Virus record (IMG/VR): IMGVR_UViG_3300028595_000010
Length of the DNA stretch: 64,000 bases
From: an uncultured virus (IMG/VR IMGVR_UViG_3300028595_000010)
Taxonomy: Duplodnaviria > Heunggongvirae > Uroviricota > Caudoviricetes
Strand: one strand, 5' to 3'
Shown here: piece by piece, positions 4,983 to 47,065 of the stretch
Layout: the number at the start of each line of letters is the position of its first letter
Numbering within the stretch: the stretch's first letter is position 1
Made by a program: the position numbers and the translations under genes
Notes under the pieces: model-generated
Told to the model about the DNA's origin: nothing
The model's input: the letters and a program-made list of their open reading frames with translations, nothing else
Databases searched by the model: none

Positions 4983-6520
4983 TATTCTCGTTCCAGAAAT
5001 TCAATACATTGTTTTAGTATTTGTTCCGGATTAGCAATGTAATCTTGTTCCCAAATAATTAGTACATCAATTCCCCTAAACTTAATGTACTCTAATCGGT
5101 CTTTATCATTTTGCCAAATATCTTTGGCTGTTAGATTATTATGAACTACATCATCTGAAAAAAATTTAATATGATTAGCATGCCAAAAATCTCCGTTAAA
5201 TTCAATGCATCTGTTAGTGTGGGTATCAAAAAAATCTAAACAATAATATGTATCCAATTTTACCAATACATATTCAAAATTTAATGTTGCGAAATTAAAA
5301 GTATCTCTTTTAATAGTTGATCTAATCTTATTAAATAATTCTTGAGATATTAAAGAATATCCTTTTCTAAATTTAGATATATTCTTTACAAATTCCAAAT
5401 ATCTTTTAGTTCCTTCTTCTTCCCCATATTTTCTAATACTAACTTCTAAATTATATTTAGACTTCTCACAAAATTCACTATGCTTAATAGGTCCTTCAAC
5501 TTCCCCATACTTATCAATAAACCAACCTAGTGTACATTTTCCTTTAAGTTTATCCAAATATTCTTTATATTTTTTAGGCCCCTCTTCTTCTCCATAACGA
5601 TCAATCATATTTTCTAGAGTTTGTTTACTAGAATCTCTAAATTTATCCCATTTCTCTTTTCCTATCGTTTTCCCATGTCTTTTTATAAGATTTTCTAAAG
5701 TAATAGTTTTTCTTTGATTATAATCTTCATACTTCCTAATCCCTTCCTCTTTTCCATATTTTTTAATAAAATTAGATTTAGTACATTTTCGACTATCTAT
5801 AATTTCTTGAGCTCTTTCTTCTCCATATCTTTCAATTAAATAATCGAAATTGTTCATTCCTTGTCTATACTTATCATATTTTTCAAATATTTTAGTCCCT
5901 TCTTCTTTCCCATGTTTATCTATATAATATTGCCTATCTTCCCTAACACATTGTTTAGAAATAAATGAATCCCATCTTTTAGTCCCTTCTTCTTTCCCAT
6001 ATTTTTCTAAAAATCCTTCTTTTGTAGACATTTTAGATAGTTTAATAGATCTTTCTTTATATTTGATCAATCCATCATTTTCTCCATACTTTTCAATAAA
6101 CCACTGCTTAGTATATCTCCCCTTACCAACATTAGACATTTCAGAAAGTTTATTTGTTGCAACCTCTTGCCCATAAACCTTAATCATATATTCTTTAGAT
6201 TTTTTATTCATACTATGTTTAGGGCAATTTTTATTAATTCCATCAAAACATATTCTAGATTCTGTATGATAACTCTTTACTTCAAATTTAACAACATTTT
6301 CTTCAATATGTATAACTACCTCCCCTATTCTCCTAAGCCATCCACAAAATACACATTTATCTACATCATCCGCAGACAACATTAGTTTAATTAAAATTTC
6401 CTCAATCTGTGCACCCTTAATAAGATGCTCTTTCTTTAACAAAAATCTTATACTTCGTCTTTTAGTATTTTGAGTTTCTTTTATTTTATCTAAAAAAACA
6501 TCTATTGGAAATGTAATCAT
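4982..6520 (-). CDS. free-standing homing endonuclease (Vsr/DUF559-like PD-(D/E)xK C-terminal domain with KYGxEEG repeats)
   Basis: About 10 copies of a (K/R)(Y/H)G(E/K)EEG repeat; C-terminal LDFF...IEFNGDFWHAN...IIWE motif; very AT-rich; sits between the two intein halves. Confidence 0.8.
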   Translation of the reverse strand: MITFPIDVFLDKIKETQNTKRRSIRFLLKKEHLIKGAQIEEILIKLMLSADDVDKCVFCGWLRRIGEVVIHIEENVVKFEVKSYHTESRICFDGINKNCPKHSMNKKSKEYMIKVYGQEVATNKLSEMSNVGKGRYTKQWFIEKYGENDGLIKYKERSIKLSKMSTKEGFLEKYGKEEGTKRWDSFISKQCVREDRQYYIDKHGKEEGTKIFEKYDKYRQGMNNFDYLIERYGEERAQEIIDSRKCTKSNFIKKYGKEEGIRKYEDYNQRKTITLENLIKRHGKTIGKEKWDKFRDSSKQTLENMIDRYGEEEGPKKYKEYLDKLKGKCTLGWFIDKYGEVEGPIKHSEFCEKSKYNLEVSIRKYGEEEGTKRYLEFVKNISKFRKGYSLISQELFNKIRSTIKRDTFNFATLNFEYVLVKLDTYYCLDFFDTHTNRCIEFNGDFWHANHIKFFSDDVVHNNLTAKDIWQNDKDRLEYIKFRGIDVLIIWEQDYIANPEQILKQCIEFLERE

Positions 6521-9814: not shown

Positions 9815-9828
9815 GAGAATTAATTAGC

Positions 9829-11124
9829 TTAGTGCTGATAGGCTCTTTCAACCCACTTCTTAGCTTCTTTAAGTGCTAAAATATGGTCATCAAAAAGTCC
9901 TCTCTGGAGACACATTTCTGAAACAGCTTCCATTGTTGCAGCGGCGGCAAGCATTGCCTGTTGCTTTTTCTTATCTCTTCTCTTCTTAGCGAGATAAGCT
10001 GCTGTTGCTACACCACCAAGAGCTGCTGCTCCGATTCCATATTTGCCTGCATTACGACCAACATGAGCTACTGTTCTTTCTCCGCCAGACGCTCCTATAG
10101 ATTTAAGTGCTGCATCTGATCCGCCACTTCTACCGAATTTCCAAGCAGCCCCCATTCCTGGGGTATTAGGCTCCGCTTTCTTTGGAGCTGCGGCTGGTGC
10201 TTCTACAGGTTTTGCCTTAGGCACAGGAGCTTGAGCGGCCTTAGCGTCTCTTTTTGCCTGAAGATCAGATTTTACTCTATCTGCCTTATTTCTAATCTGA
10301 GCCTTTTTATATTTCTCGGATCTAATTTCATCCGAAGTTTTCAACCTTTCGTCAACATTTTCAACTGAGGCATTCGGACGTCTATTAGTTTTGAGAGTTT
10401 GATCAAATGTAGCAGAACTTTGCTCTTCTACATTTTCTGTATATCCTTGAGATGCAGCTCTGCGACGGGCTTCTTCTTCTTTTCTCTTTCTTCTGCGATA
10501 GAGTGCATACAATCCAGCACCAGCAACACCTGCACCAATACCTCTCTTAATATTCGTGCCGTGTTTGCCCATAAACTGATCAACTTTCTCAGAGTCAACA
10601 CCCATAGCTTTAGCACCAGCTGCGCCAAATTCAGCAGGTATAGCTCCTGCTGCTCTCAATCCCAAATCTCCGGCTTTTGTTGCTCCTTTAATTCCTGCAT
10701 ACATAGCAGATCTCATGGGATTATTTACAGTTCTTCCAACTGTACTTTGGTTCAGGGCGTCTCTACCTTTCTGAACTGTATCTTTAACTCTCTGAATTCT
10801 TGATGGATCATCATCTTCAAACAGAGTTTGTTGTTCACGAAGAGTAGCGACCAAAGATCTTCTTTTACCACAATTGTGCTCAAGAAGAGTTACTCTTGCT
10901 TCTTCTATATCCTTAACAAATTCATAGAAAACTTTTTCCAGTTCTGGGGCAGGAATAAATTTTTCAGCCATAGGATTCATAACCATATTGAGTGCCTGTT
11001 CATAGGACATCTCTTTAAGGATATAATCCTTCATTTTTAAACCCTTTTCAGGATTTTTCTCAATTGCCTGCTCGAGAAGAGAGATTCTCATAGCTTGGCT
11101 TACATCATTTCTTGTTAGAAACAT
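9829..11124 (-). CDS. putative virion (internal head) protein
   Basis: Two Gly/Ala-rich hydrophobic helices each followed by a basic patch; multiple (I/L)xE sites; function inferred. Confidence 0.45.
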   Translation of the reverse strand: MFLTRNDVSQAMRISLLEQAIEKNPEKGLKMKDYILKEMSYEQALNMVMNPMAEKFIPAPELEKVFYEFVKDIEEARVTLLEHNCGKRRSLVATLREQQTLFEDDDPSRIQRVKDTVQKGRDALNQSTVGRTVNNPMRSAMYAGIKGATKAGDLGLRAAGAIPAEFGAAGAKAMGVDSEKVDQFMGKHGTNIKRGIGAGVAGAGLYALYRRRKRKEEEARRRAASQGYTENVEEQSSATFDQTLKTNRRPNASVENVDERLKTSDEIRSEKYKKAQIRNKADRVKSDLQAKRDAKAAQAPVPKAKPVEAPAAAPKKAEPNTPGMGAAWKFGRSGGSDAALKSIGASGGERTVAHVGRNAGKYGIGAAALGGVATAAYLAKKRRDKKKQQAMLAAAATMEAVSEMCLQRGLFDDHILALKEAKKWVERAYQH

Positions 11125-13090: not shown

Positions 13091-16000
13091 TTATAGGTTG
13101 CCATTCACAATTCTTTCAAGTATAGATTCTGTATTATCTCTATCGTAAGTTAATCCCATTGTGATAGATTCATTCGGATTTTCAAATGATAAAGCACTAA
13201 GCCAAGATTCTAATGCAGGAATTTGTTTTATATTCACAATAATTGCTTTGTAGTTATTATTCAATCTAGCAGGATATGACGGATTATCAGCATCCCTAAG
13301 AAGATTTGATGAAAGAACTTCAAAATGAACCATATCTGCATTCTTAGTATCTTTGGCATATTGATCATATACCTTCATACAGAAATGATCTCCTGATCTC
13401 CATGGTTTCTTCCCAGATAATAAATGAGCAACTTGTTTCATTTTGTCGCTGAAACTATCAGTAACTGGAGGAACTGAAAATATTTTAGAATTAGCATTAA
13501 ATTTGATTACTATTGTTTTATCAGTAATTTCTATGTTATTATCACTATAGTTTACAATAGTTTTAGCATCTATAGTTATTGGAAAATTTCCATGTGTGGC
13601 ATCTATTGTAAAATAACCATACGCTAAGTCAACAACACCTTTTCCAATTTTTATATCTTTCTTTTGATCTAAATATTCTAATTTATTTATTACTATAGTG
13701 CCATTTACTGATGCTATAATATCATTTTCTACTTGTTTGAATAATTTATTATATTTAGACATTTCAGAATCCGAATATGTATCAGATAGGACTTTAGCCA
13801 CATCTATTTTATTAACTGATACTGCTCCACCTGTGTGAAACGTATTATGATTTTGCATCATATTCATCATAAATTCGGATGTAGACGTCTGAATATCATA
13901 TACAGGATATTCCCATTTATCTAATTTCTTTATACTGCTTACTATATCAAATCCTCTAATTGCCATTTCTTTTCTATATCTAACATACTTAATCTCTTCA
14001 ATCGAATTTAACTTTACAGAATTTAATTTAGGATCTTCTATAAAACTTATATCAATTGAAAATGCAGGACGTTTTCCTTCTATAGATTTCTTTCCTGGTC
14101 TTTCTAATTTAGATACATTTGTATTACACTTATAGTTGAGTTTAATACAAATCGCTTTAAGTTGTTGTACTAAATAATGACTAGTAGTGGATATTCTACA
14201 GACTGTAGAAGATTTTGTAAATACTGTACCATCTGTATCAATTAACCCAGAAATAAATTCTTTTAACCATTTTTTGTCGTAATCTATGAAATTATGAGAA
14301 AGTCGTTTTTCCCATGCATAATTTCCAAGAACTATATTAGATATTTCCTGATCATTATCGTACATTGAAATATAATCTCTACATTCAGATACTCTTTCAT
14401 ACTGAGTTTTTGCTTCAAGTATTATTTTACTTCTAACATCACACTCTTTAGTTTGAGATATTGCATTACCTTTTATATTTCTATCTTTTCCAAATTTAAA
14501 TCCATCTCCACAATATGCTCCACATATATATCCAGATTTAGAAGGAATTATAGATTTTTCATTATTGTATGCAATAGTTGAATCTATCCATATTGCGTCA
14601 TGTTTTGAAAGATCTTTAGCTTGAACTTCGATTAACTCATCGTCAATATCGTCAAAAATATTTCTTGATCCAGCGTATTCTTTATATTCATTATTACCTA
14701 TCAATCTACATTTTCCATTTGGATATTTAGAATGTATAGAATTTTTCTTAATCCATAACGGATGATTCGCTTGAACTATAATATTATGACCTTCCTTGGT
14801 AGAAATGAATAATAAATCGTCAGTTGGATTATGTTTTTGAATTTTTAATGCTGGTACAGCAGCATCTTTACCATCAACATATACATCAGTCAAATATTTA
14901 GTTTCTTTACCATCAACAATTTTAACTTCTTCATCTATTTCATTCCATAAATCTTCAAATGCCCATAATTGATTTTTATAATGAACTATCCCAGATGAAC
15001 ATTTCATAATCATTTGGGTTCCACGCTCACCTATTATTTGTGCAGCAAGAACTCCAACAAACAATGTTCGGTTTCTATCAAGAAGTTTTCCATAGCACGT
15101 CTTACATAATTTAGGATTTTTACAATACAATGGGGATTTTAAAGGAATTACTTTACCAATCAATTTATCAGGATCTGTTATTTCTGTCGGTTTTCCTTGA
15201 AGTAATAAATAACGTCCTTTAAGTCTTGGAGCTATATCCTTAGTCACTTTCAACTTAAAGAATTTTTTAGTCCCACAATCATATCTAGATGGATCAGCTT
15301 CTACTCGTTGTAATGCATAAACGAGTTGTCTACTTAAGTAACCTGTATCCGCAGTATTCAAAACTCTATCGGAGATACCTTTTCGAGTTCCTGCACCAGT
15401 CTGAAAAAATTCTTTACTATTAAATCCTTCGGTATATGATTCAGGAACGGCAGGAAGAACATTTCCTTCATTATCCTGAATAAGCCCTTTAGATACTAAA
15501 ATTTGTCTTGTTTGGCCCCATCCTTTAAGTCCTCCGGCTTCTCCAATTACTCCTAAATTAGTTCCTCTTTCTGTAAAGTCTTCTTCTAATCTCTTTTCAG
15601 CATGATTTAAAAGATCAGTCACTTTTTCTGGTGACTGCCCAACAATCTTATTTTTAATCCGCTTAACATCAGCAGGAATATCAAAATCTTGAATACTAAA
15701 TGAAGGAGATGCTAATGTTCCATATTTAAAAGCAATCTTTAGCAATCTACTTGTATACTCAACATACTCTTTCTGCCCATACTTGTTGTGTATAATAGTT
15801 GCTAATTTTCCAAGCATCTTTTTATCAATTGGGTTATTAATAAACTTCATTTGGGGAGGAAGAACCTGATTAAAGATAACTCTTCCTGCCGTTGTTGTCA
15901 TTCCCCCAAATCTTACTTTATCATAGATATTCAAATTAAATGCATCATCTGGTGATTTAATTTGTTTGATAGATCTACTTGGTTTCGGTGGATCTTGTGT

Positions 16001-17266
16001 AAGGACATATATACCTATCGCTATATCTTTTTCAAATCCGTCAGCAACTTTTCCTTCACCGTCTTTAGACATTGAGATCATCAATTTATCTTTTGCCTCT
16101 TCTATTGCCTGTTTGGTGATAGGCACGTATAAAGCCATTTGATCTCCATCAAAATCAGCATTAAATGCAGGACACTTAACTGGACATACCTTAATAGTAT
16201 TCCCCTCAACTAACTTTGGATAGAATGCCTGAACTGATTCGGCATGAAGAGCTGGATCTCGTTTTGCAATGACAACTTTGTCTTTGATTGCTCGTTCAAC
16301 AGAATCTCTAAGTATTTGTTCAAGACGCTCAGGAATTTCATCGTGCTTATAAATGCCGATGAATAATTTTTTCAATGAAAGAGCACTGAGCTTACTTCCA
16401 TTGAATTTCTCAAGTTCTGCGGACATTTCGTCTCTGGGAGCTATTCCGCTATTGAGCAGATCATGTAAAACAAACGGTTCATATAGTTTTACTAATAACT
16501 TGAATGGAACACCTAATTCATTAGGCTTAAGTTCAGCAGCTGCCCCAACAATCACTGCACGAGCAGAAAAGTCCACACGTTTACCTAACATGTGTCCTCT
16601 CAAAAGACCTGTTTTCTTTGCCATCTTTGATATGATATAATCATACAAATCTTTAACTAAATTAAACATTCTGTATGACAAAAGATCATACACAGTCCCA
16701 CCACTGATTGATCTTAGCTGCAATGATAATCTGATGATATTCAGATAATAATCATTCATTGGCTGAACAGTAATTTCGCCACTATCGTGAATTGTGATAT
16801 CTCTATATACTGGAGGTATTACAAGAGATTTATCTACAAAGACAAGTCCCTTCTTCTTATATCCTTCCACCAGATGTATCAAATCATCTCTCTTAGTTGT
16901 GCCGCCTCTAAATTTGATTTTATCAAAATTTTCAACGACCGCAGACATTCCATATATCTTCCCATTATCATCCGGTTCAAGTATTCCCTCATCATTAATT
17001 GTATACTTCTTTTCTCCCGACATAGCAACTAATAGTTTCTGTTCTAATCTTCTAATTACTGGAAATAGTGCTGGATGTAATACTTTCGTGTTCAATTCGA
17101 TGAATGAATAAGTCTTCTTTCTGTCAGGAGAATCTACAGGCCCAAATATTCTTTCAGAAAACAAACCGTCCGGATGGAATGATTGTGTTTTCCCAACAAA
17201 GAACTCCGTAGATGTAACAGGGACAAGATTCTTAGTCACATCGCTCAGATCCATTAACTTCAACAC
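13091..17266 (-). CDS. rpoC: RNA polymerase beta' subunit with cis intein
   Basis: DGLFSERIFGP, GKRVDFSARAVI, catalytic NADFDGD, TADTGYLSRQL, GERGTQMIMK|intein|TFHTGG; GTG start with AGGAG RBS. Confidence 0.95.
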   Translation of the reverse strand: MLKLMDLSDVTKNLVPVTSTEFFVGKTQSFHPDGLFSERIFGPVDSPDRKKTYSFIELNTKVLHPALFPVIRRLEQKLLVAMSGEKKYTINDEGILEPDDNGKIYGMSAVVENFDKIKFRGGTTKRDDLIHLVEGYKKKGLVFVDKSLVIPPVYRDITIHDSGEITVQPMNDYYLNIIRLSLQLRSISGGTVYDLLSYRMFNLVKDLYDYIISKMAKKTGLLRGHMLGKRVDFSARAVIVGAAAELKPNELGVPFKLLVKLYEPFVLHDLLNSGIAPRDEMSAELEKFNGSKLSALSLKKLFIGIYKHDEIPERLEQILRDSVERAIKDKVVIAKRDPALHAESVQAFYPKLVEGNTIKVCPVKCPAFNADFDGDQMALYVPITKQAIEEAKDKLMISMSKDGEGKVADGFEKDIAIGIYVLTQDPPKPSRSIKQIKSPDDAFNLNIYDKVRFGGMTTTAGRVIFNQVLPPQMKFINNPIDKKMLGKLATIIHNKYGQKEYVEYTSRLLKIAFKYGTLASPSFSIQDFDIPADVKRIKNKIVGQSPEKVTDLLNHAEKRLEEDFTERGTNLGVIGEAGGLKGWGQTRQILVSKGLIQDNEGNVLPAVPESYTEGFNSKEFFQTGAGTRKGISDRVLNTADTGYLSRQLVYALQRVEADPSRYDCGTKKFFKLKVTKDIAPRLKGRYLLLQGKPTEITDPDKLIGKVIPLKSPLYCKNPKLCKTCYGKLLDRNRTLFVGVLAAQIIGERGTQMIMKCSSGIVHYKNQLWAFEDLWNEIDEEVKIVDGKETKYLTDVYVDGKDAAVPALKIQKHNPTDDLLFISTKEGHNIIVQANHPLWIKKNSIHSKYPNGKCRLIGNNEYKEYAGSRNIFDDIDDELIEVQAKDLSKHDAIWIDSTIAYNNEKSIIPSKSGYICGAYCGDGFKFGKDRNIKGNAISQTKECDVRSKIILEAKTQYERVSECRDYISMYDNDQEISNIVLGNYAWEKRLSHNFIDYDKKWLKEFISGLIDTDGTVFTKSSTVCRISTTSHYLVQQLKAICIKLNYKCNTNVSKLERPGKKSIEGKRPAFSIDISFIEDPKLNSVKLNSIEEIKYVRYRKEMAIRGFDIVSSIKKLDKWEYPVYDIQTSTSEFMMNMMQNHNTFHTGGAVSVNKIDVAKVLSDTYSDSEMSKYNKLFKQVENDIIASVNGTIVINKLEYLDQKKDIKIGKGVVDLAYGYFTIDATHGNFPITIDAKTIVNYSDNNIEITDKTIVIKFNANSKIFSVPPVTDSFSDKMKQVAHLLSGKKPWRSGDHFCMKVYDQYAKDTKNADMVHFEVLSSNLLRDADNPSYPARLNNNYKAIIVNIKQIPALESWLSALSFENPNESITMGLTYDRDNTESILERIVNGNL
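13844..15001 (-). mobile_element. intein (386 aa) with LAGLIDADG endonuclease domain
   Basis: Starts Cys (CSSGIV), ends QNHN before Thr; internal GAYCGDG and ISGLIDTDG motifs. Confidence 0.92.
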
Positions 17267-38803: not shown

Positions 38804-41800
38804 TTAGAATAGACAGATATTACTCTTCTTTGCTAGGGGTTCAAGTAAAATATCCACTCTATCATTTATTGCAAATGCAATAATTCTTTGAGTGTCAACT
38901 ATATAATATTCTGGTATCTTAGTAATTGTTTCAGGAATGACTATGACATTAAGATCTTTCTGATTCCATTTTTTAAGGAACTCTTTATGGAAGTTATCTA
39001 CAACTTTATGTGGAGCTTTATCTAGATCAATTCCCTTAATTGGAACTAGAATTCCTCTATTTCCATGCCTGAAATGATCATACTCCAAGCAGTTCCATAT
39101 TAACATACCTTTGAGATGTTGTGGAATTGTCTTGTATTGATTCAATGGTTTTGAGAAGGCAACAGTCTTGAAGATTGATGGATCTCCTTTTATAACCATA
39201 TCAATTGCTGTAGCTTTGAAATCATTTACAAGATCTAACGTTCCCTCATACGTGAAATCATCATTCTTGAGAATGTTATCAATCAATTTCTCAAGCATAT
39301 CTTTAGTTAATTGAGAAAAATCGCTTCGTTTTATTTCGAGGCCTTTGATATCTACCTCATCAGTTGCAACTCCTTCCTGACTAACAACATGTAATGCATA
39401 CTTCTTCTTGACATTCAGGCAGTAATAACGTCTTGCTATCAATTCACTCTTAATGTCAAGCATGGATTCATCTTTAGCAATATTGTGCAATTTAGCATAT
39501 CCAGTCAGTAGCATTCCATTGAGAAAATTATGAATATTCTCTGTCTCTTTTGCAATCGATTCAGGATTTGGGTCAATTCCTAATTTTTCCAAATACGGTT
39601 CCATATGGAGAAACAGAGAATCAGTATCACAATACTTCAAATATTCTTTGTATTCCTCAACATCAGTCATGTAATTTGGATTTATGTCAATTGATACAGC
39701 TTTCATATCTTTACGAGATTCAGCCATTTTTGTCATCCAGGTATCTACATGTTCTCCAGCAAACTTAATTAGGTCCTGTCCTGACAATGTAACTGTTGAA
39801 GCTAGATCCAAATTATAGAATCTGAAATGCTCCTGAGCTAGAACTCCATAAAGTGAGTTAAGCAAAATCTTATAAGCCATCTGCTTATTATTATATTGCT
39901 TCCTTTCAAGATCGTTTCCAGCTTCCTTTGCCTTGAACATCAAGCCCTTGTAGTACTTTCTCTGCTTAAAAAGCTTCTTGATGATATTATAGAATATTGA
40001 TTTCTCGATGTCATGACCTTTGTAGATACACCCGGACGGAGATACAATCGCATGATATTTTTCTAAGATCTCCGTGAATTTCTTCATCGGAACATTTGCG
40101 ACCTTAGAATTGTATATCGGATTTGGAATAAGTTTGACTGAATCTCTTTCAAGAAACTTCTTTCTATGATATGTATACTCGTGAGCATCTTCAGGAGTTA
40201 TTCTTGCTACAAATGTATTCGGTCCAATATTGTATGAGCAGATAATACTTGGGTACAGACTCGTATAGTCGAAATCGATCACCCAATCATATATTCCGCC
40301 TACTGGTTCTCTAACATACGCCCCAACTATGCCCTGTTTGGTTCTACCGTGGACAGTGTTACGCATAACCGTATTATGCGACTTCAACTCAAAGTTGAAC
40401 AGACCGTCCGCAAGACCTATTGTAGACGATGCACCATTATGAGACGTTGTTGCAGCAGCTCGCAGCTCATCCTGTAATGAAAGATGACCTAACTCACTTT
40501 CTAGACCATAAAGAAGATCTGTATCTGTAATCGAATATTCACAAAATGTAAAGATGTCGGTACGATAGAGATTCATAAGATCTCCATCGTAATTCTTCTT
40601 GCCTCGATTCAAAACCTTTTGAGAAATGTTTTCAAGAGAATAACTTGGCTCATTTGTATAAGTCAAATTCTTATATAGCCACATTTGGTCAAGAGGAATT
40701 CTCCCGTAAATCAAACATGTTGACATATTTGGATCTGCAAATGTCACACCAAAAGGAGATAAATCATTCGAATTAAGCCCTATATTATCCATTCGATTTA
40801 TAATATAAGGATTATCAAATCCAGCAGAATTCCACCCACACAAATAGTCAGGATTCAATTGTTTCGTTCTGTCAACGAATGCTTGAACCATCTTTTGTTC
40901 ACTTTTAAAAATCTTCACATGCTTGAACTTCTTATGCTCGTTCAATTGTTCCCATCTTGAATCAATCCCCTTTGTAACAAGGAGATACATCTCAACTTCA
41001 CCTTCGTCCAACTTGAACGATATAGCATTTATAGGAAACTTTGCTTCTACTGGATCTGGAAAACCTCTATAACTTCCTGTATATACCTCAATATCGTAAA
41101 ATAAAATATTGCGGTGAAGAATTGGAGCTTCTCCCTTATTCCTCATGTAGTAATCAGTAGCTTGTTTATTTGCAATCTTGATGTCAGACTCGTAGCAGTG
41201 ACCTTCTTGATTTCGACCAAAGTATTTACCAATCTTCAATTCGGTATTTTTGACATCTTCTATTAGAGACTGAGTTGTTCCCTCGTACCAATAATATTCA
41301 ACGTCTTTTGGAGGAGGAGTGTATTCTTCTCTGTTGTTGTCTTTGTCTCTGAAGATGAAAATCAGTTGTCCACTTTTGCTAATATACTGAACGTCAACTA
41401 ATCGATAGTCATCCTCATAATACTTAGTTGGAATCCTATAGGTATAGGGCTCATCCACTTTCTCGGTTTTGATTTCACCAGAGTTAGTCGTTTTACTGAC
41501 TGTTACCACTTCGTCTTCCTCTTCAGGGTTGAGAAATTCAGCAGCTTGTTTGAAACAATCTACAAACTTCTTGCCGGCTTCCGAACTAAGACCTCCATTG
41601 CGTGCCACATAACTAGGATGTGCTACCACAAGGACCTTGCTCGAAAAATCGGCAAATAGGTCTTCAGATAGTTTATCCTGATATGAGAAAAATTGACCTT
41701 GAATTTTAGTAATCCCGCTATCCTTCCCAATTAAACTACGCATGGGAGTTGTACCTAAAGAAATGATTAGTTTTGGTTTACATATCTTAATAAAATTAAG

Positions 41801-42139
41801 ATAATTAACCTCACATCTGTCTGCAACTTCTTTTGTCGGATTAACAGTCTTGCCATTCTCAATTGTTGCACACAAGACTGTATTTGTAATGAAATATTTT
41901 ATTCCGTCAATTGATTTGATGTATTTATCAAACGGTTCTCTGAATATCTTTCCCGCTTTTCCCACCAGTGGAGTTTCAGCTTTAAGCTCTTCTTTTCCAG
42001 GATTCTCTGCAACAATAACAACGTCAACTTTGGACAAATCATCCGCTGAATTAGTATCAGCGATAACCGATCCTGAACCTACTAATGGACAAGTGGAACA
42101 ATCAGCAAAACTTCCTTTAATTGTAAACACTACAAACAA
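38804..42139 (-). CDS. family B DNA polymerase with N-terminal family-4 uracil-DNA glycosylase-like domain
   Basis: N-term CSTCPL, AENPGKEE, PLVGKAG, TNTVLC, HPSY; exonuclease YDIE, GWNSAGFD; polymerase DYTSLYPS, KILLNSLYG, YCDTDS, KKKYA. Confidence 0.92.
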   Translation of the reverse strand: MFVVFTIKGSFADCSTCPLVGSGSVIADTNSADDLSKVDVVIVAENPGKEELKAETPLVGKAGKIFREPFDKYIKSIDGIKYFITNTVLCATIENGKTVNPTKEVADRCEVNYLNFIKICKPKLIISLGTTPMRSLIGKDSGITKIQGQFFSYQDKLSEDLFADFSSKVLVVAHPSYVARNGGLSSEAGKKFVDCFKQAAEFLNPEEEDEVVTVSKTTNSGEIKTEKVDEPYTYRIPTKYYEDDYRLVDVQYISKSGQLIFIFRDKDNNREEYTPPPKDVEYYWYEGTTQSLIEDVKNTELKIGKYFGRNQEGHCYESDIKIANKQATDYYMRNKGEAPILHRNILFYDIEVYTGSYRGFPDPVEAKFPINAISFKLDEGEVEMYLLVTKGIDSRWEQLNEHKKFKHVKIFKSEQKMVQAFVDRTKQLNPDYLCGWNSAGFDNPYIINRMDNIGLNSNDLSPFGVTFADPNMSTCLIYGRIPLDQMWLYKNLTYTNEPSYSLENISQKVLNRGKKNYDGDLMNLYRTDIFTFCEYSITDTDLLYGLESELGHLSLQDELRAAATTSHNGASSTIGLADGLFNFELKSHNTVMRNTVHGRTKQGIVGAYVREPVGGIYDWVIDFDYTSLYPSIICSYNIGPNTFVARITPEDAHEYTYHRKKFLERDSVKLIPNPIYNSKVANVPMKKFTEILEKYHAIVSPSGCIYKGHDIEKSIFYNIIKKLFKQRKYYKGLMFKAKEAGNDLERKQYNNKQMAYKILLNSLYGVLAQEHFRFYNLDLASTVTLSGQDLIKFAGEHVDTWMTKMAESRKDMKAVSIDINPNYMTDVEEYKEYLKYCDTDSLFLHMEPYLEKLGIDPNPESIAKETENIHNFLNGMLLTGYAKLHNIAKDESMLDIKSELIARRYYCLNVKKKYALHVVSQEGVATDEVDIKGLEIKRSDFSQLTKDMLEKLIDNILKNDDFTYEGTLDLVNDFKATAIDMVIKGDPSIFKTVAFSKPLNQYKTIPQHLKGMLIWNCLEYDHFRHGNRGILVPIKGIDLDKAPHKVVDNFHKEFLKKWNQKDLNVIVIPETITKIPEYYIVDTQRIIAFAINDRVDILLEPLAKKSNICLF

Positions 42140-42241: not shown

Positions 42242-43843
42242 TTAGAGTTCTACTGATTTGATCGTTTCAACCCAGTAGTTCTCCTGCTTGGCTTCGATAA
42301 AGCCAGCCATGACTTCAAAGACGAAGTCTGAGAAGCCGCCGACATTCAAGATGTCAGCACCCGCGTTCGGGATTTGAGTTGTAGAGTATGGGGCCAGGTT
42401 GATGTTAACCAACCGTGCACCCTTGTTCTTCTTGCGGAAACGCTCCCACTCCGCGAAAGTGGAAGTACCTCTGCAACCCCAACCTCTGGCAGACTTGCCA
42501 CTGGAGTCGATCCAAGACTCGTTGTCAGAGAGGTAGATCACAGCGTCACCACGACCGTTGTTGTCATTGACCATCTTCAGAGGGGCAGAACAGTTAGTTC
42601 CACCGCCACCATAACTGGCCAACTTCTTCGCGTTGGTCATGATGCTGTCAAGCGGATTGATGCTGTGCTTATGACAGGTCGTGTCGAATGGGATCAACAC
42701 TGCTCTGTCAGGATGCTTTCTCATGATTGCACATGCTGCCAAAGCGGCAACATCCACACATCTCATTGTTGTGGTTGCAGATCCGCGATGACCTGTAACA
42801 GGACATCCCATTGAACCTGATGTATCCACAAAGATGTAGATGTGATCATTTCCAGGAAATTCCGGAATGTTCTCACAAGCAATCTCTGCTGCAAATTGTA
42901 GTGAGTTCTTAATGCTTGTAGGAACGCTACCAGTGTTCAACCATGCGTTGAACAACTGATATGGGAACACCTTGGACTTGAGAATTAACTCTTTGTCCTT
43001 CAGCTTGTCCGCAATGATCTGAACTGATCGGGGATGCTTAAGAACGCCGTGACGTTCAAAAGTATTCAGATTCATCCGACATGCATGGAATGGCATGTTT
43101 TCAGCAATCTGCATCCAATGTTTCGTAGTCAGATTGAACGGAGCCAGGAACTGGAACGGAAGATCTGGTTGTGGTGCAGTTTTCGGATCCTTTTTGAAAT
43201 CCTCATACTGTTTTACTAAAGGAGGTAAGAGATCGTAATTGAACTCTCTCTTCATCAAATAGTCAATGAAGTTCTTCCGGACGTCTGTCTCAGGCTTTGG
43301 ATGGGATAGGTTGATGATATCCACTAGAGTTGGATCAGTACCAATAGATCCTCTCAAGAGCTGATGCTCATTCTTGCCGTTGATCCAATCCTGAATCAGC
43401 TTCTTCGTGAAAGTCCCGAAAGACTTACGAGTGAACTGACCGGAACGAACCATCTGGACAAAGTTTTGCAACATCTTCTGTCTGTCCATAACTCTAGGGA
43501 ATACTTTCTTCAACAGATCGGATTCCCCACGTTCATGCAAAATGGCACAGCAGACAGCAGGAGTATCTTTCATGTAACCACGCTCACGAGCCAAGACAGC
43601 CAGTTGTGCGATATATTCTGGATCTTTGATGGAACGGAGCAATTCCGTCAATTCGGACAGTTGAGTTTTCGCGGAAGCGTAGAAGCCTCCGTTCAAGCAT
43701 CCCGTGAACACCAACTGTGCGGCGGCTGCCTTTTTCTTCAGTTTGTATGCGGTTCCGCCTGCCTCGTTGACAGTAACCTTCTCCTTGGTTTTGCGGATTG
43801 TGGTTTTCTTCTTTTTGTTGCTGAACAATTCCTTGTTAGCCAT
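42242..43843 (-). CDS. Ro60/TROVE-domain RNA-binding protein (Rsr-like) with vWA domain
   Basis: VNEAGGTAY, TGCLNGGFY, RMNLNTF.RHGV, VFPYQL; vWA MIDAS DTSGSM, GGGTNC, SDNESW; AAGGAG RBS. Confidence 0.92.
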   Translation of the reverse strand: MANKELFSNKKKKTTIRKTKEKVTVNEAGGTAYKLKKKAAAAQLVFTGCLNGGFYASAKTQLSELTELLRSIKDPEYIAQLAVLARERGYMKDTPAVCCAILHERGESDLLKKVFPRVMDRQKMLQNFVQMVRSGQFTRKSFGTFTKKLIQDWINGKNEHQLLRGSIGTDPTLVDIINLSHPKPETDVRKNFIDYLMKREFNYDLLPPLVKQYEDFKKDPKTAPQPDLPFQFLAPFNLTTKHWMQIAENMPFHACRMNLNTFERHGVLKHPRSVQIIADKLKDKELILKSKVFPYQLFNAWLNTGSVPTSIKNSLQFAAEIACENIPEFPGNDHIYIFVDTSGSMGCPVTGHRGSATTTMRCVDVAALAACAIMRKHPDRAVLIPFDTTCHKHSINPLDSIMTNAKKLASYGGGGTNCSAPLKMVNDNNGRGDAVIYLSDNESWIDSSGKSARGWGCRGTSTFAEWERFRKKNKGARLVNINLAPYSTTQIPNAGADILNVGGFSDFVFEVMAGFIEAKQENYWVETIKSVEL

Positions 43844-44032: not shown

Positions 44033-44423
44033 TGGTGGAGACGCCGAGAATCGAACTCGGGTCCACAACTCGTTGTCAAGACTGACGTCTACGTGTGTAG
44101 CTTAAATTTTCTTTTGCCTAAGCAGCCGCATCTGATTATTTTTACAATCTACCCAGTGAGCTGGATATCAGATAAGATGTTGCTCTATAATTCGCATATA
44201 AGTCCGAGCAAACAAATATGCTATCCTAAACGCCCAAACAGTGCAGTTGACGCCTTCTGCCATATATAGGAATATTGACAGTCCACGCGTAGCTTGCCTA
44301 AGCTGCTACGAGATCAAGTTCAGGATTGTGAACTCAAAAGTAATCGGCTTTTTAAGTGGCCAACCGATCAACCACTACACGCAATCAGACGACTCTTAGT
44401 TATGTCGAAACCATGTCGTCCCC
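44033..44423 (-). ncRNA. ssrA: tmRNA
   Basis: 5' GGGGACG...UUUCGAC and 3' GAC-CCGAG-UUCGAUU-CUCGG-CGUCUCC-ACCA; G3:U70 alanine pair; internal tag frame (44333-44298) VHNPELDLVAA-stop. Confidence 0.93.
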
Positions 44424-44503: not shown

Positions 44504-44672
44504 TAAAACAAACCCCCCTTTGTACATGTATCTCGGTGCACCAAAATACAAGTGCCCTACAGAAGGGGTGCTTATATAATAATAGGTTATCGGCTCCTAC
44601 TTAATTCGGTCACCGAAAGTCTCGACTAGTTACCGGAGAGCATATCCAGTGTTCATCTCCACAAAATGAAAA

Positions 44673-44819
44673 TCCTCTGACAGAAAACGGAAAGACGTTT
44701 TTACGTTGCTCTAGCCAACTGAGCTACTTCACCGTTTTTGAAATTGGTGGTGAAGACTGGACTCGAACCAGCGACCTACGGCTTAACTTGCATGTAGTCT
44801 TTACCAGGCATTCAGAGGA
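44673..44819 (-). ncRNA. Y RNA-like (YrlA-type) RNA with circularly permuted tRNA domain, copy 1
   Basis: Terminal helix UCCUCU/AGAGGA, GAAUGCC..UACAUG / CUGUC motif; T arm, then CUUCACC-A-CCA, loop, GGUGAAG, D arm. Confidence 0.85.
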
Positions 44820-44826
44820 AAATTAA

Positions 44827-44901
44827 AATGGAGACAGGGAATGTTTGAGATGATTGGTTTGCATAATCAAAAGCATGTAATCTCAAACGGCATTCTCCAT
44901 T
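44827..44901 (-). ncRNA. minimal Y RNA-like stem, copy 2
   Basis: AAUGGA-GAAUGCC-GUUUGAGAU-UACAUG ... AUCUCAAAC-AUUCC-CUGUC-UCCAUU. Confidence 0.75.
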
Positions 44902-44981: not shown

Positions 44982-44997
44982 ACAAGTAAGATGGAAA

Positions 44998-45065
44998 AGT
45001 CCGACAGGGTAATAGATGAGATGTATTTGATTAAAAGTCATGTAATCTCATCCGGCATTCGGACT
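44998..45065 (-). ncRNA. minimal Y RNA-like stem, copy 3
   Basis: AGUCC-GAAUGCC-GGAUGAGAU-UACAUG ... AUCUCAUCU-AUUACC-CUGUC-GGACU. Confidence 0.75.
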
Positions 45066-45069
45066 AAAT

Positions 45070-45696
45070 CTATTTAGGATATCTCTTTTTGTATATCCCT
45101 CCAAAGATCTCCGCCTTTGTTGGCGTCTTACGATCTCCATTCTTAAATCTGTATGTGTCAGTCATTGCATGACAATTGCAACATAGGATTTCTTCATTAG
45201 ATCTTGTTTTATTATTTGCGTTTCCGTCAATATGATGTAACTCATATGGGCCGCTTTCAAGATCATAAGAATCAAATCCGCAAACATTGCATTTCTGCCC
45301 TTGTTCTTCCCAGATCAATTTCCGTCTATATCTCCAGGATCTTTCCTCGTACGGAAGTTTATCAGATCTGACTTTATGCGCCAATCTTGCTGATTCTGAT
45401 AATTGAGAAGATTTACACGACGGACAAATGGGAATAAACTGACTTCTTCTGATTGTTCCGTTCTTTGCTTCATTTTTAAATGAAGAAGAACATCTTGAGC
45501 AGATTAAATTTATATCTGGTACAGCACTGAAATCTATATCCAATTTAGATTTTGATCCCTGTACTCCATTATTTCCTCTAATCTTTGCTCTGGTTGATAA
45601 TTTTTTTCTGTATCCTTCGCATGTGTAATACGACTCGCAACACCATTTTCCATATACCGCGAGTTTTCCACACCCACCTTTGCATAATTGAACCAT
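45070..45696 (-). CDS. HNH endonuclease with Zn-ribbon motifs
   Basis: CNVCG...ELHHIDGN..N....N.EILCCNCHA; start moved to ATG 45696 because the track start lies inside the tRNA 3' end. Confidence 0.85.
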   Translation of the reverse strand: MVQLCKGGCGKLAVYGKWCCESYYTCEGYRKKLSTRAKIRGNNGVQGSKSKLDIDFSAVPDINLICSRCSSSFKNEAKNGTIRRSQFIPICPSCKSSQLSESARLAHKVRSDKLPYEERSWRYRRKLIWEEQGQKCNVCGFDSYDLESGPYELHHIDGNANNKTRSNEEILCCNCHAMTDTYRFKNGDRKTPTKAEIFGGIYKKRYPK

Positions 45697-45738
45697 AGAA
45701 CAATTACCTTTTACAGTTTGTTCTCTGAGTTCAAGAAA

Positions 45739-46002
45739 TGGCATACCCTACAGGATTCGAACCTGTGACCTGCTGATTCAAGTTTGTGTTGCTTTCGCAA
45801 CTCCTTGGACTTTCTCTTCACCTTATTAAAAACTTAGGTGGCAGCCGTTAAGTCTCTACACCTTCCATATTGGCTTGGCTCGGGATTGCCTTATTTGAAA
45901 CTTAGGTTTCCCCGAATTTGACTGCTTACACTCATACTATTTCTAATATGAGGCCCAGATGTTCTAGAAGTCAGCTGCTCTATCCAGCTGAGCTAAGGGT
46001 AC
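45739..46002 (-). tRNA. tRNA-Arg(UCU) interrupted by a group I intron (exons 46002-45966 and 45778-45739)
   Basis: Joined exons give GUACCCU...GCUGA-CUUCUAA-UCAGC...GGUUCGAAUCC-UGU-AGGGUAU-G-CCA. Confidence 0.92.
45779..45965 (-). mobile_element. group I intron (IC3-like), 187 nt
   Basis: P AAAUUCGGGGAA, Q AAUCCCGAGC, R GUAGAGACU, S AAGAGAAAGUCC; P1 with U:G at the splice site; GAAA tetraloops on P2 and P9; terminal G. Confidence 0.9.
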
Positions 46003-46010
46003 AAATAAAA

Positions 46011-46157
46011 GGACTGACAGGAAGCGATGTGACGTAATGTTTTTATGCTACCATTACACCACGGTCACTTTTTGATTATTAGCGACCGTCCGGATTCGAA
46101 CCGGAACCTTTACTTTTCAAGAGTATATTTCATGTAATCACATCAGGCATTCAGTCC
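46011..46157 (-). ncRNA. Y RNA-like (YrlA-type) RNA with circularly permuted tRNA domain, copy 4
   Basis: GGACU/AGUCC terminal helix, same motif; T arm UCCGG-UUCGAAU-CCGGA, looped acceptor CGGUCGC/GUGACCG, then D arm. Confidence 0.85.
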
Positions 46158-46158
46158 A

Positions 46159-46240
46159 TGGTGGCAAAGGGTGGATTCTAACCACCGACCAGAAGAACTC
46201 TTGCGTTTCTACTAGCTCTAACACTGAGCTTTACTTCGCC
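46159..46240 (-). ncRNA. degenerate tRNA-like RNA
   Basis: GGCGAAG/CUUUGCC-A-CCA acceptor, D stem GCUC/GAGC, T loop UUAGAAU, irregular anticodon arm. Confidence 0.65.
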
Positions 46241-46246
46241 ATAAAA

Positions 46247-46339
46247 GATCCGACAGGAATGCATGAGATGTTTTAACTAGCGGGTTATAATCGCCAGTAT
46301 GCATAAATGAAGCATGTAATCTCACACGGCATTCGGATC
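46247..46339 (-). ncRNA. Y RNA-like stem, copy 5 (no tRNA domain)
   Basis: GAUCC-GAAUGCC-GUGUGAGAU-UACAUG ... AUCUCAUGC-AUUC-CUGUC-GGAUC. Confidence 0.75.
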
Positions 46340-46386
46340 AAATTTGATATCATAAATTTATTCCCTAAGGAAATTTTACGATTCTT

Positions 46387-46468
46387 TGGTGGACGTACAG
46401 GGATTTGAACCCTGTGATTAATGGGACCTCTGTGGGCTTTACCATTAATCTTTAACCGAACTACGCCC
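46387..46468 (-). ncRNA. D-armless tRNA-like RNA with alanine acceptor identity
   Basis: GGGCGUA/UACGUCC-A-CCA (G3:U70), no D stem, 9-bp helix GAUUAAUGG/CCAUUAAUC, T arm CAGGG-UUCAAAU-CCCUG. Confidence 0.7.
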
Positions 46469-46546
46469 AGTAAAAAGAGGAGGCCGTCGATAGTACCCTC
46501 ACAACGGCCTCCATGTTTCTTCATAGTATAAATTAGAATTTCATAA

Positions 46547-46798
46547 TTATGACTCAGCAGTTCCCGAAGGATTCAACCAAGACTTGTTCGACAGCATTTG
46601 TGAAACTAACGGACTCGTGTACTGCCAGTTATACGACCGGGCCATAATAAATAAAAAAGGGAAAGACCTCCAAGGTAATTCCGACCGGGATGGGGACGGG
46701 ATGGGATAGATATTGTTTGGAGGCCCAGAAGGGATTCGAACCCTTACCATAAGCGTTTTTAAGAATGCTACGTCGTATTGGTTTATCTGCAGAGTATA
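46547..46798 (-). ncRNA. large circularly permuted tRNA-like RNA on a long interrupted stem
   Basis: T arm plus CUGGGCC-U-CCA (46750-46718) precede GGCCCGG plus D arm (46643-46615); flanks pair (AGCAUU/AAUGCU, CGAC/GUCG, AACCAA/UUGGUU, GCAG/CUGC, ACUC/GAGU). Confidence 0.65.
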
Positions 46799-46830
46799 AA
46801 GCTATAGGAGCGAAACACTGACTGACGGCT

Positions 46831-46893
46831 TCATCTGGTCCACCGACTCTTCAATGCTTCCTCTACCGCAAGCACTTCGTGTAGTTTACCCAT
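46831..46893 (-). CDS. 20-aa ORF (MGKLHEVLAVEEALKSRWTR); leader peptide or truncated gene remnant
   Basis: Strong GGAGGAG RBS just upstream of the ATG. Confidence 0.4.
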   Translation of the reverse strand: MGKLHEVLAVEEALKSRWTR

Positions 46894-47065
46894 GTGCTCC
46901 TCCATTGGGATTATAAAAACTTAAACTGAAAAACAAAGAGATAGGTTTATACAGAATGTATGTTCCTTTACCAAATTGTCAGTAGCTGATAATTTGGTTC
47001 TCCATCACAATTTAATATATTTAGATAACGGTATCCTTTCCAAGGTAGAGACATACACTTTTACC

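Follow-up and report, generated by a model that had tools for sequence, protein, structure and literature searches.

What kind of RNA, if any, is encoded at positions 46547–46798 of the phage sequence IMGVR_UViG_3300028595_000010, where the parts of a tRNA follow one another back to front? The 64,000-nt stretch analyzed here (hereinafter, the window) is a jumbo-phage-like contig of an uncultured member of Caudoviricetes, and the element in question (hereinafter C, with all coordinates on the minus strand) is the first gene of a minus-strand RNA array that leads down to a Ro60 gene. To our knowledge, such a layout is well described for no tRNA mimics other than bacterial Y RNAs, which are understood as partners of Ro60. 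We find that C is homologous to an element of a second phage (hereinafter M) and that the two share a conserved fold. There is a somewhat better than even chance that C is a structured non-coding RNA of ~250 nt, or ~320 nt with the hairpin at 46512–46479, shaped as a circularly permuted tRNA look-alike. It is best read as a variant of the YrlA tRNA-mimic design that has no Ro handle and possesses a long spacer. An initial annotation had assigned C to a distinct, possibly undescribed class; the anatomy given there is right, whereas the novelty has to be qualified, the body plan being that of YrlA and the two-piece state having a precedent (Chen et al., 2014; PMC4201824, in the parts of the article available to us).

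The permuted tRNA-like core

From 5' to 3', C consists of a 5' flank, the T arm, the 3' strand of the acceptor stem, U-CCA, a spacer, the 5' strand of the acceptor stem, the D arm and a 3' flank, with the permuted core spanning 46745–46619. This is the order that had been claimed initially; it is found on the minus strand, and the predicted spacer of ~75 nt measures 74 nt between the predicted bounds (46717–46644). The succession of T arm, acceptor stem-loop and D arm, combined with the tRNA invariants, is that of YrlA. In C, the acceptor stem has 7 bp and the D stem 4 bp, and the nucleotides that make tertiary contacts in tRNA are in place, namely, U8, A14, A15 opposite U48, G18 and G19, A21, G53-C61 and the T loop UUCGAAU.

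A scanner for the core pattern (T arm, 7-nt strand, gap of 3–159 nt, a second 7-nt strand fully complementary to the first, 2 nt, GG-containing D arm) finds four matches in the window, whereas 40 shuffled windows yield 0.15 on average and never more than 1; three of the four are permuted modules of the RNA array and the fourth, at 6445, is spurious. The five flank helices and the UUCG side hairpin described in the initial annotation are all present as well. Pairing of the two flanks with each other yields a gain of -15.7 kcal/mol over their separate folds, compared to -6.2 ± 3.1 in shuffles, 1 of 300 of which reaches the observed value, as do 0 of 300 natural segment pairs of equal geometry.

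In ARAGORN and Rfam, the scans initially suggested as a check, C is not assigned to any family: ARAGORN calls no tRNA or tmRNA within it (the only tmRNA call is 44033–44423), and Rfam, at the gathering threshold and at E <= 10, reports only a 17-nt noise match (RF04351, E = 7.4). The models of YrlA (RF02553, gathering score 69 bits), tmRNA (RF00023), permuted tmRNA (RF04321, tmRNA_permuted) and tRNA (RF00005) produce no match to C at E <= 10; the clearest YrlA-like RNA of the array is also under the RF02553 cut-off, with 44 bits. A canonical tRNA was considered and rejected, given that the anticodon arm is replaced by an open flank helix and neither ARAGORN nor RF00005 calls one. The Ro60-binding motif of YrlA and bacterial Y RNAs (GNCGAAN0-1G; YGAAUGCC in this array) is missing from C: GAATGCC occurs five times on the minus strand of the array and not once in C, in agreement with the original description, and a search of 46547–46815 with GNCGAAN0-1G as a regular expression gives no match, the nearest sequence, UACGACG, having two mismatches.

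Conservation of the fold in a second phage

M resides in L088, an IMG/VR phage record of 74.7 kb (97% complete by CheckV), in which neither Ro60, by profile search, nor a match to the YrlA model was found. Its core comprises the T arm CCAGG-UUCGAAU-CCUGG, UUUCCCC-U-CCA, a 55-nt AU-rich spacer, GGGGAAA-UC and the D arm GUAU-AAUGGCA-GUAC. Pairs were counted with the two sequences anchored at the T arm and the D arm; the MAFFT alignment is off by one column at the T arm and was not used for the counts. Among the 16 core pairs, eight are identical, one is changed on one side, seven show compensatory changes and none is broken; the acceptor stem contributes four of the compensatory pairs and the one-sided one, again with none broken.

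Outside the core, ungapped identity is 19/44 in the 5' flank and 24/62 in the 3' flank, values reached by 23/2000 and 29/2000 shuffles, respectively, and the flank lengths are fixed (45 nt in C versus 44 nt in M, and 38 nt in both). The M counterpart of the innermost helix h1 (Table 1), GAC(A)UUUG/CAAAGUC, occupies the same place, and that of h2, AGAUGCA/UGCAUCU, lies in the matching place, with compensatory changes in four of the six aligned pairs. Helix h4 is represented by CACCAA/UUGGUG, with one compensatory pair, and keeps its register, NACCAA being located 32 (C) or 31 (M) nt before the T arm and UUGGUN 38 nt after the D arm in both. When the M flanks are shuffled, the register predicted from C contains a run of h2 length in 452 of 20,000 cases, one of h4 length in 1189 and both in 25. 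A small hairpin directly follows h4 on the 3' strand in C and M, and a strong hairpin of the form GGAGG...AGGGUA...CCUCC lies ~100 nt after the D arm of both; among 425 sequences (1.67 Mb), this form is found only after C and after M. In C, this hairpin probably marks the 3' end of the unit. Given that a diverged copy in an unrelated phage keeps the fold, we take C to be a genuine relative of the Y-RNA type of bacterial tRNA mimic, with a putative function considered below.

Table 1. Parts of C and Y-like RNAs of the array, with positions in the window.
Feature	Positions	Strand	Remarks
T arm AAGGG-UUCGAAU-CCCUU	46745–46729	-	Loop identical in M; 3/5 stem pairs compensatory relative to M
Acceptor 3' strand CUGGGCC	46728–46722	-	Read from sequence
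U73 and CCA	46721; 46720–46718	-	M likewise has U-CCA, then AA
Spacer, 74 nt, pyrimidine-rich	46717–46644	-	Weak hairpin and U6; AU directly 5' of G1
Acceptor 5' strand GGCCCGG	46643–46637	-	7 pairs with CUGGGCC, one of them G-U
U8 C9, then D arm GUAU-AACUGGCA-GUAC	46634–46619 (D arm)	-	D stem identical in M
Variable-loop analog AUGGU	46750–46746	-	Between the 5' strand of h1 and the T arm
h1 AACGCUU / GAG(UC)CGUU	46757–46751 / 46616–46608	-	Anticodon-stem position, abuts core; 7/7 pairs canonical, bulged
h2 AGCAUU/AAUGCU	46769–46764 / 46598–46593	-	4/6 aligned pairs compensatory relative to M
h3 CGAC/GUCG	46775–46772 / 46592–46589	-	Loosely matched in M
h4 AACCAA/UUGGUU	46783–46778 / 46580–46575	-	One pair compensatory relative to M
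h5 GCAG/CUGC	46790–46787 / 46560–46557	-	Not conserved in M
h6 (outermost) ACUC/GAGU	46795–46792 / 46555–46552	-	Part of minimum free energy structure
Side hairpin UCC-UUCG-GGA	46571–46562	-	Within 3' flank
3' flank	46616–46552	-	3' strands of h1–h6 and UUCG side hairpin
Downstream hairpin GGAGGCCGUUG-UGAGGGUACUAU-CGACGGCCUCC, then UCUUUUU	46512–46479	-	Fold -25.1 kcal/mol, z = -5.3
YrlA-like RNAs with permuted tRNA heads	44671–44818; 46020–46155	-	44 bits (44671–44818)
YrlB-like RNAs	about 44830–44895; 44993–45070; 46262–46345	-	

Several observations weigh against this interpretation. Only two members are known, so that the covariation amounts to one pairwise comparison, and the helices of C and M were placed by hand. 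Covariation among homologs, which the initial annotation had named as a check, is found for the inner flank helices in the form of compensatory changes, but of the outer helices, neither h5 nor h6 is kept in M, and h3 is matched loosely (UCG/CGG, in another register). The position of h5 is taken in M by another possible 4-bp helix, CGAA/UUCG, which is shifted and has a local hairpin as its competitor. The flank-pairing gain of M, -6.5, is reached by 102/300 shuffles because a local 8-bp hairpin competes with h2. In C itself, the minimum free energy (MFE) of the whole RNA is ordinary (-59.2 versus -59.4 ± 4.8, z = 0.04, with 102/200 shuffles as good), the unconstrained MFE structure swaps the D arm for another hairpin, and GGCCUCCAA can alternatively form 9 bp with UUGGAGGUC in the spacer, in competition with the acceptor stem. 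The CCA of the candidate RNase P substrate runs on into 74 more nucleotides, and there is no RNA run among the sequencing runs found to contain C. With respect to Ro60, the downstream hairpin of M contains GUCGAAGG, which fits the published Ro motif, and Ro60 could bind via another site, C being 2.7 kb from the Ro60 gene. For h1 of C, an alternative pairing (AUGG/CCGU, AAAC/GUUU) also appears in folding runs.

The spacer and the proposed maturation of C

The spacers of C and M differ in length (74 versus 55 nt) and in composition (C-rich versus AU-rich), and can be aligned only at the first bases (UCCAAA...) and at the last two (AU). U73-CCA-AA after the stem and AU before G1 are kept in both. 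The flanks are fixed in length while the spacer varies by 19 nt and is unalignable, which fits a discarded linker, such that the ends matter and the body does not. These ends bear the marks of tRNA end processing, and C and M both possess the features of an RNase P substrate, i.e., a 7 + 5 bp acceptor/T stack (12 bp), N73-CCA in the form of U-CCA, and U at position -1. Excision of the spacer at 46717–46644 is plausible.

By a simple scan, neither a sigma-70 promoter nor a standard terminator was found inside the C spacer. The sequence GGGATGGGGACGGGATGGG at 46687–46705 on the plus strand, inside the spacer on the presumptive template strand of the RNA, is the only canonical G-quadruplex motif in the window on either strand (1 observed versus 0.02 expected), and the M spacer has no counterpart. 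Pairing of the spacer with the AGGGUA loop of the 3' hairpin was considered and dropped, 1981/2000 and 893/2000 shuffles doing equally well.

The YrlA of Mycobacterium smegmatis is a substrate of RNase P both in vitro and in vivo, a property that the authors credit to the 7-bp acceptor stem; after cleavage, CCA is present on the 5' half of this RNA, and the two halves are recovered together with Rsr by co-precipitation (Chen et al., 2014; PMC4201824, same parts of the article). On this precedent, we propose RNase P cleavage and CCA trimming for C. Presumably transcribed as the first gene of the phage RNA array, C would fold so that the T arm, the 7-bp acceptor stem and the D arm meet at a four-way junction; the fourth arm, in the place of the anticodon arm, would be a long irregular helix formed by the 5' and 3' flanks of the RNA itself, and the acceptor "loop" would be a long, freely evolving spacer with U73-CCA at its start and AU at its end, before G1. 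The host RNase P would cut 5' of G46643, and the spacer would be trimmed back to CCA46718, leaving two RNA pieces with natural tRNA ends that are joined by the acceptor stem and the flank helices h1 to h4. By analogy with the mycobacterial RNA, we consider the chance that C is cut and trimmed in this manner to a nicked tRNA-shaped RNA to be about even. The product would be a tRNA mimic for enzymes that recognize the tRNA shape and would act independently of Ro60; a decoy or an adaptor for a tRNA-recognizing enzyme is the simplest reading. Given that C has no Ro motif and M belongs to a phage without Ro60, the pair suggests a family independent of Ro60.

The 3' hairpin starts with 7 nt that match acceptor positions 69–75 as their exact complement, and this complementarity covaries between the two elements (GGCCUCC/GGAGGCC in C, CCCCUCC/GGAGGGG in M); all three GGAGGCC words of the window lie within C. 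The relationship was noticed post hoc, and only two of the seven pairs are informative because the five other positions are conserved anyway. It suggests that the 3' hairpin can mask or exchange with the CCA end.

Alternative explanations

The main alternative, possible in our estimate but unlikely, is a one-piece scaffold of the Y RNA kind, in which the spacer would be kept as a single-stranded pyrimidine-rich loop, comparable to the effector loops of PNPase-tethering Y RNAs, and phage or host Ro60 would bind a divergent site. The position of C in a Ro60/Y RNA array, the GUCGAAGG in the M 3' hairpin, and the highly unusual spacer of C, which contains the one G-quadruplex/C-tract motif of the 64 kb (0.02 expected), are all in line with such a scaffold. 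Furthermore, the parts available to us of two papers report that the Ro60 of Thermus phage phiLo, with Y-like RNAs, binds the host PNPase (PMC12135203) and that YrlA of Salmonella Typhimurium and Yrn1 of Deinococcus radiodurans undergo no RNase P cleavage (PMC4201824). However, a retained functional loop is hard to reconcile with a spacer that is unconserved in sequence, length and composition between flanks in fixed register, or with the retention of U-CCA and AU/G1 in both copies, and Ro60 binding has against it the lack of the Ro motif in C and of Ro60 in the M phage. The nicked tRNA-shaped RNA also has to be weighed against tRNA debris, in which a decayed tandem duplication would have left the 3' portion of one tRNA copy next to the 5' portion of the following one; remnants of two decayed tRNAs had been envisaged in the initial annotation. 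The scanner does pick up identical tRNA genes in tandem as if they were permuted (L149, L206), and the D arm and U73 are those of a common phage tRNA type, the D-arm word occurring in normal tRNAs at 41/42 loci. Nevertheless, there is no tRNA body either before the T arm or after the D arm, the two flanks pair mutually, M keeps every core pair, and both the flank register and the 3' hairpin are conserved across two very different phages; because of this covariation and conserved register, we regard debris as improbable.

Among the remaining possibilities, a two-piece (permuted) tmRNA or a tag-less derivative has in its favor the gene order, which, as in permuted tmRNA genes, begins with the T arm and the CCA-bearing 3' strand of the acceptor stem and has the 5' strand later, and the long irregular helix that leaves the tRNA-like domain, cf. 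P2. It is very improbable and is excluded here, in agreement with the initial annotation, because C has the full D stem GUAU/GUAC, the pair 3:70 is C-G in C and G-C in M rather than G-U, and the tmRNA models of ARAGORN and Rfam are silent on C; moreover, a tag frame or pseudoknots would not fit between the D arm and the flank helices, and a one-piece tmRNA is already encoded in the phage genome. Slightly less probable still is a true permuted tRNA gene that matures via a circular intermediate, as in some algae. In the permuted tRNA genes of the red alga Cyanidioschyzon merolae, the 3' half comes first, the spacer is removed by RNase P and 3' processing, and the complete tRNA is rebuilt via a circular intermediate. 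C also has the 3' half before the 5' half, a spacer of similar size, and CCA and RNase P marks, but whereas the algal tRNAs regain an anticodon loop, C cannot form one: its flanks are unable to rebuild the anticodon stem-loop, and a real permuted tRNA is excluded for this reason. Neither is there a bulge-helix-bulge (3-nt / 4-bp / 3-nt), the loops beside h1 being 6 x 9 nt in C and 6 x 13 nt in M, with further helices after them, and no splicing endonuclease was seen among the 30 proteins scanned. We give hardly any credence to a small protein gene, although a 67-codon open reading frame (ORF), 46750–46547, exists on the same strand and ends exactly at the start coordinate of the element as initially annotated. 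This ORF has no PHROG family match and would cross the T arm, the acceptor stem and the D arm, the pairs of which covary as RNA; the matching frames in M are broken, with ORFs of at most 43 codons and unrelated products.

Relationship to known RNAs

C shares with YrlA (RF02553) the order of T arm, acceptor stem-loop and D arm, the tRNA tertiary nucleotides, and the fourth arm formed by the RNA ends. The setting of C is YrlA-like as well, with a Ro60 gene nearby, a phage genome, and two clear YrlA-like copies in the same array; the Ro60 neighborhood is a trait that M, in its 97% complete record, does not show. Unlike YrlA, C has neither a Ro60-binding motif nor an Rfam match, possesses a longer handle with a three-way junction and a 3' hairpin conserved in M, and has its only known homolog in a phage without Ro60. 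The acceptor "loop" of C, including UCCA, is 78 nt long, compared to 3–18 nt in the permuted modules of 80 viral Ro60 loci, several of which have ACCA after the acceptor strand.

The processed YrlA of M. smegmatis resembles C in its 7-bp acceptor stem, and in the CCA end and the paired halves that we propose for C. In the mycobacterial RNA, CA is added after cleavage and the product is Rsr-bound, whereas the CCA of C is encoded and followed by a long spacer. YrlA-like modules without a handle in phage tRNA arrays (G002, G003, G007) possess the same permuted tRNA body as C without the Ro handle, often in the absence of a Ro60 gene. These modules are 75–135 nt long with a sealed, short acceptor loop, whereas C, at ~250–320 nt, has the long spacer, a conserved long handle and the 3' hairpin. 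The two-piece (permuted) tmRNA (RF04321) resembles C in gene layout and in the probable excision to two paired pieces; unlike it, C has a D stem, no G3-U70, no tag frame, no pseudoknots and no model match. Judged by titles and abstracts, none of the papers found on permuted tRNA in phages concerns such an RNA, and in the available parts of the literature on Y RNA, Ro60, bacteriophages and tRNA-like RNAs, including PMC7824862 and PMC12135203, we found no long-spacer form without a handle; the phage YrlA RNAs listed in the supplements of Chen et al. may be relevant here.

Search for further homologs

An exact 26-nt word of C is present at 0 loci of IMG/VR, and blastn of C and of M against GenBank phages gave no match. 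The Ro60 protein of the window, searched alone in IMG/VR, had 0 relatives. A search with the DNA polymerase yielded one relative, G001 (50% identity), with tmRNA and tRNAs, in which no Ro60 and no YrlA match above the cut-off were found. A metagenome scan with a two-sequence Ro60 alignment retrieved L084 (Ro60 85% identity), which stops at window position 45000, before C. L084 has two adjacent YrlA-like copies (304–616) where the window has one, and ~1.1 kb between tmRNA and Ro60 (1296–2396) that is absent from the window. The peptidase gene adjoining M, used as a query, brought up only an unrelated high-GC phage.

A structural word (T loop, 11 nt, CCA, 62–92 nt, TCGTATAA), searched in IMG/VR and 15/64 parts of the genome collection, gave 171 loci, nearly all of them tandem tRNA genes. 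M is the only one among the 171 with 7/7 acceptor pairs, all others having at most five. The D-arm word occurs at 42 loci of IMG/VR, 41 of which belong to ordinary tRNAs for Gly, Gln, Trp and other amino acids, and M alone is permuted. A broad word, GGTTCRAATCC-N10-TCCAA, searched in 3/64 parts of IMG/VR, occurs at no fewer than 122 loci (at least), and among the matches listed only M appeared again. The relaxed scanner, run over all loci collected, gave 53 matches and no further long-spacer member.

Two shorter permuted modules came to light in these records. At L088 ~1690–1770 on the minus strand (L421 ~9822–9902, same contig), ~150 nt upstream of M, there is a tRNA-like module with a T arm, CUGCGGC, a 10-nt loop, GCCGCAG and a D arm, and an 8-bp bulged-helix handle without the Ro motif. 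L356, a 480-kb IMG/VR record with terminal repeats (G007), encodes a permuted module with U-CCA in a 9-nt acceptor loop, ACCCCGC-UCCAACUAU-GUGGGGU, followed by the D arm; no Ro60 match was found in this complete megaphage.

Genomic setting and the RNA array

The window encodes a multisubunit RNA polymerase, the genes of which are split and in one case contain an intein, a fusion of a family B polymerase with a uracil-DNA-glycosylase domain, a ribonucleotide reductase and a RecA-like protein. The intein, with a LAGLIDADG domain, lies in the beta'-like RNA polymerase gene (13091–17266, minus strand), and the uracil-DNA-glycosylase-superfamily domain is N-terminal in the family B DNA polymerase (38804–42139, minus strand). 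The runs that contain the window are marine sediment metagenomes. The C contigs in runs X2 and X3 show zero differences across the element, so that there is no variation to read. Run X1 has no cover over 46023–46928; one X1 contig (depth 22, shorter side 30 letters) joins 46758 to 46929, a junction that omits the intergenic DNA upstream together with the 5' strands of the flank helices and could be a variant phage or an unrelated tRNA-like match.

C is followed in the array by the strong hairpin, a D-armless tRNA-like RNA, a YrlB-like RNA, an odd tRNA, a YrlA-like RNA, a tRNA with a group I intron, an HNH gene, a YrlB-like RNA, tRNA-Met, a YrlB-like RNA, a YrlA-like RNA, tRNA-Thr and tmRNA. 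The Ro60 gene (42242–43843, minus strand), 2.7 kb downstream of C on the same strand, encodes a protein with TROVE and vWA domains that is ~53% identical to many Ro60 proteins. The five Y-like RNAs all contain GAAUGCC, and every one of them scores under the Rfam cut-offs.

Some of the other array members, all on the minus strand, are unusual themselves. The D-armless RNA (46386–46470; fold z = -3.8), which neither ARAGORN nor Rfam calls, combines a normal T arm and a 7-bp acceptor stem that includes G3-U70 with A73-CCA and a 9-bp arm bearing a large loop, lacks a D stem, and looks like a tmRNA-style alanine acceptor domain without the message. The odd tRNA (46162–46240, 36 bits) has ~22 nt in place of the anticodon region, starting with GGCGAAG, the only exact match in the array to the published Ro60 motif GNCGAAN0-1G, and may be a Yrn1-style Y RNA in normal tRNA order. 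The tRNA at 45740–46002, apparently Arg (UCU), has its anticodon loop split by a group I intron (45786–45977; 82.9 bits in Rfam) and is directly followed by the HNH endonuclease ORF (45070–45744). The one-piece tmRNA (44033–44423, 110 bits) has an unusual predicted tag, ANYRATSYLISSSLGRL.

Implications

C combines the tRNA-mimic body plan with an encoded CCA, an apparently disposable spacer and extra domains, without the Ro60 handle, and this combination is common to two very different phages, one of them Ro60-less. A more far-reaching proposal, which we hold to be quite unlikely, although it should be stated, is that C and M represent a new Ro60-independent phage RNA family with a host-matured, nicked two-piece tRNA body, the free U73-CCA of which would be either chargeable or masked by pairing with the 3' hairpin; such an RNA would be a switchable tRNA decoy, or a sensor directed against a defense system or a tRNA-directed enzyme of the host, rather than a Y RNA. 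If the design described here is confirmed, the tRNA-shaped head would be a stand-alone module for phages, and C would be a second natural case, after two-piece tmRNA and the YrlA of M. smegmatis, of two-piece RNA assembly by tRNA-processing enzymes.

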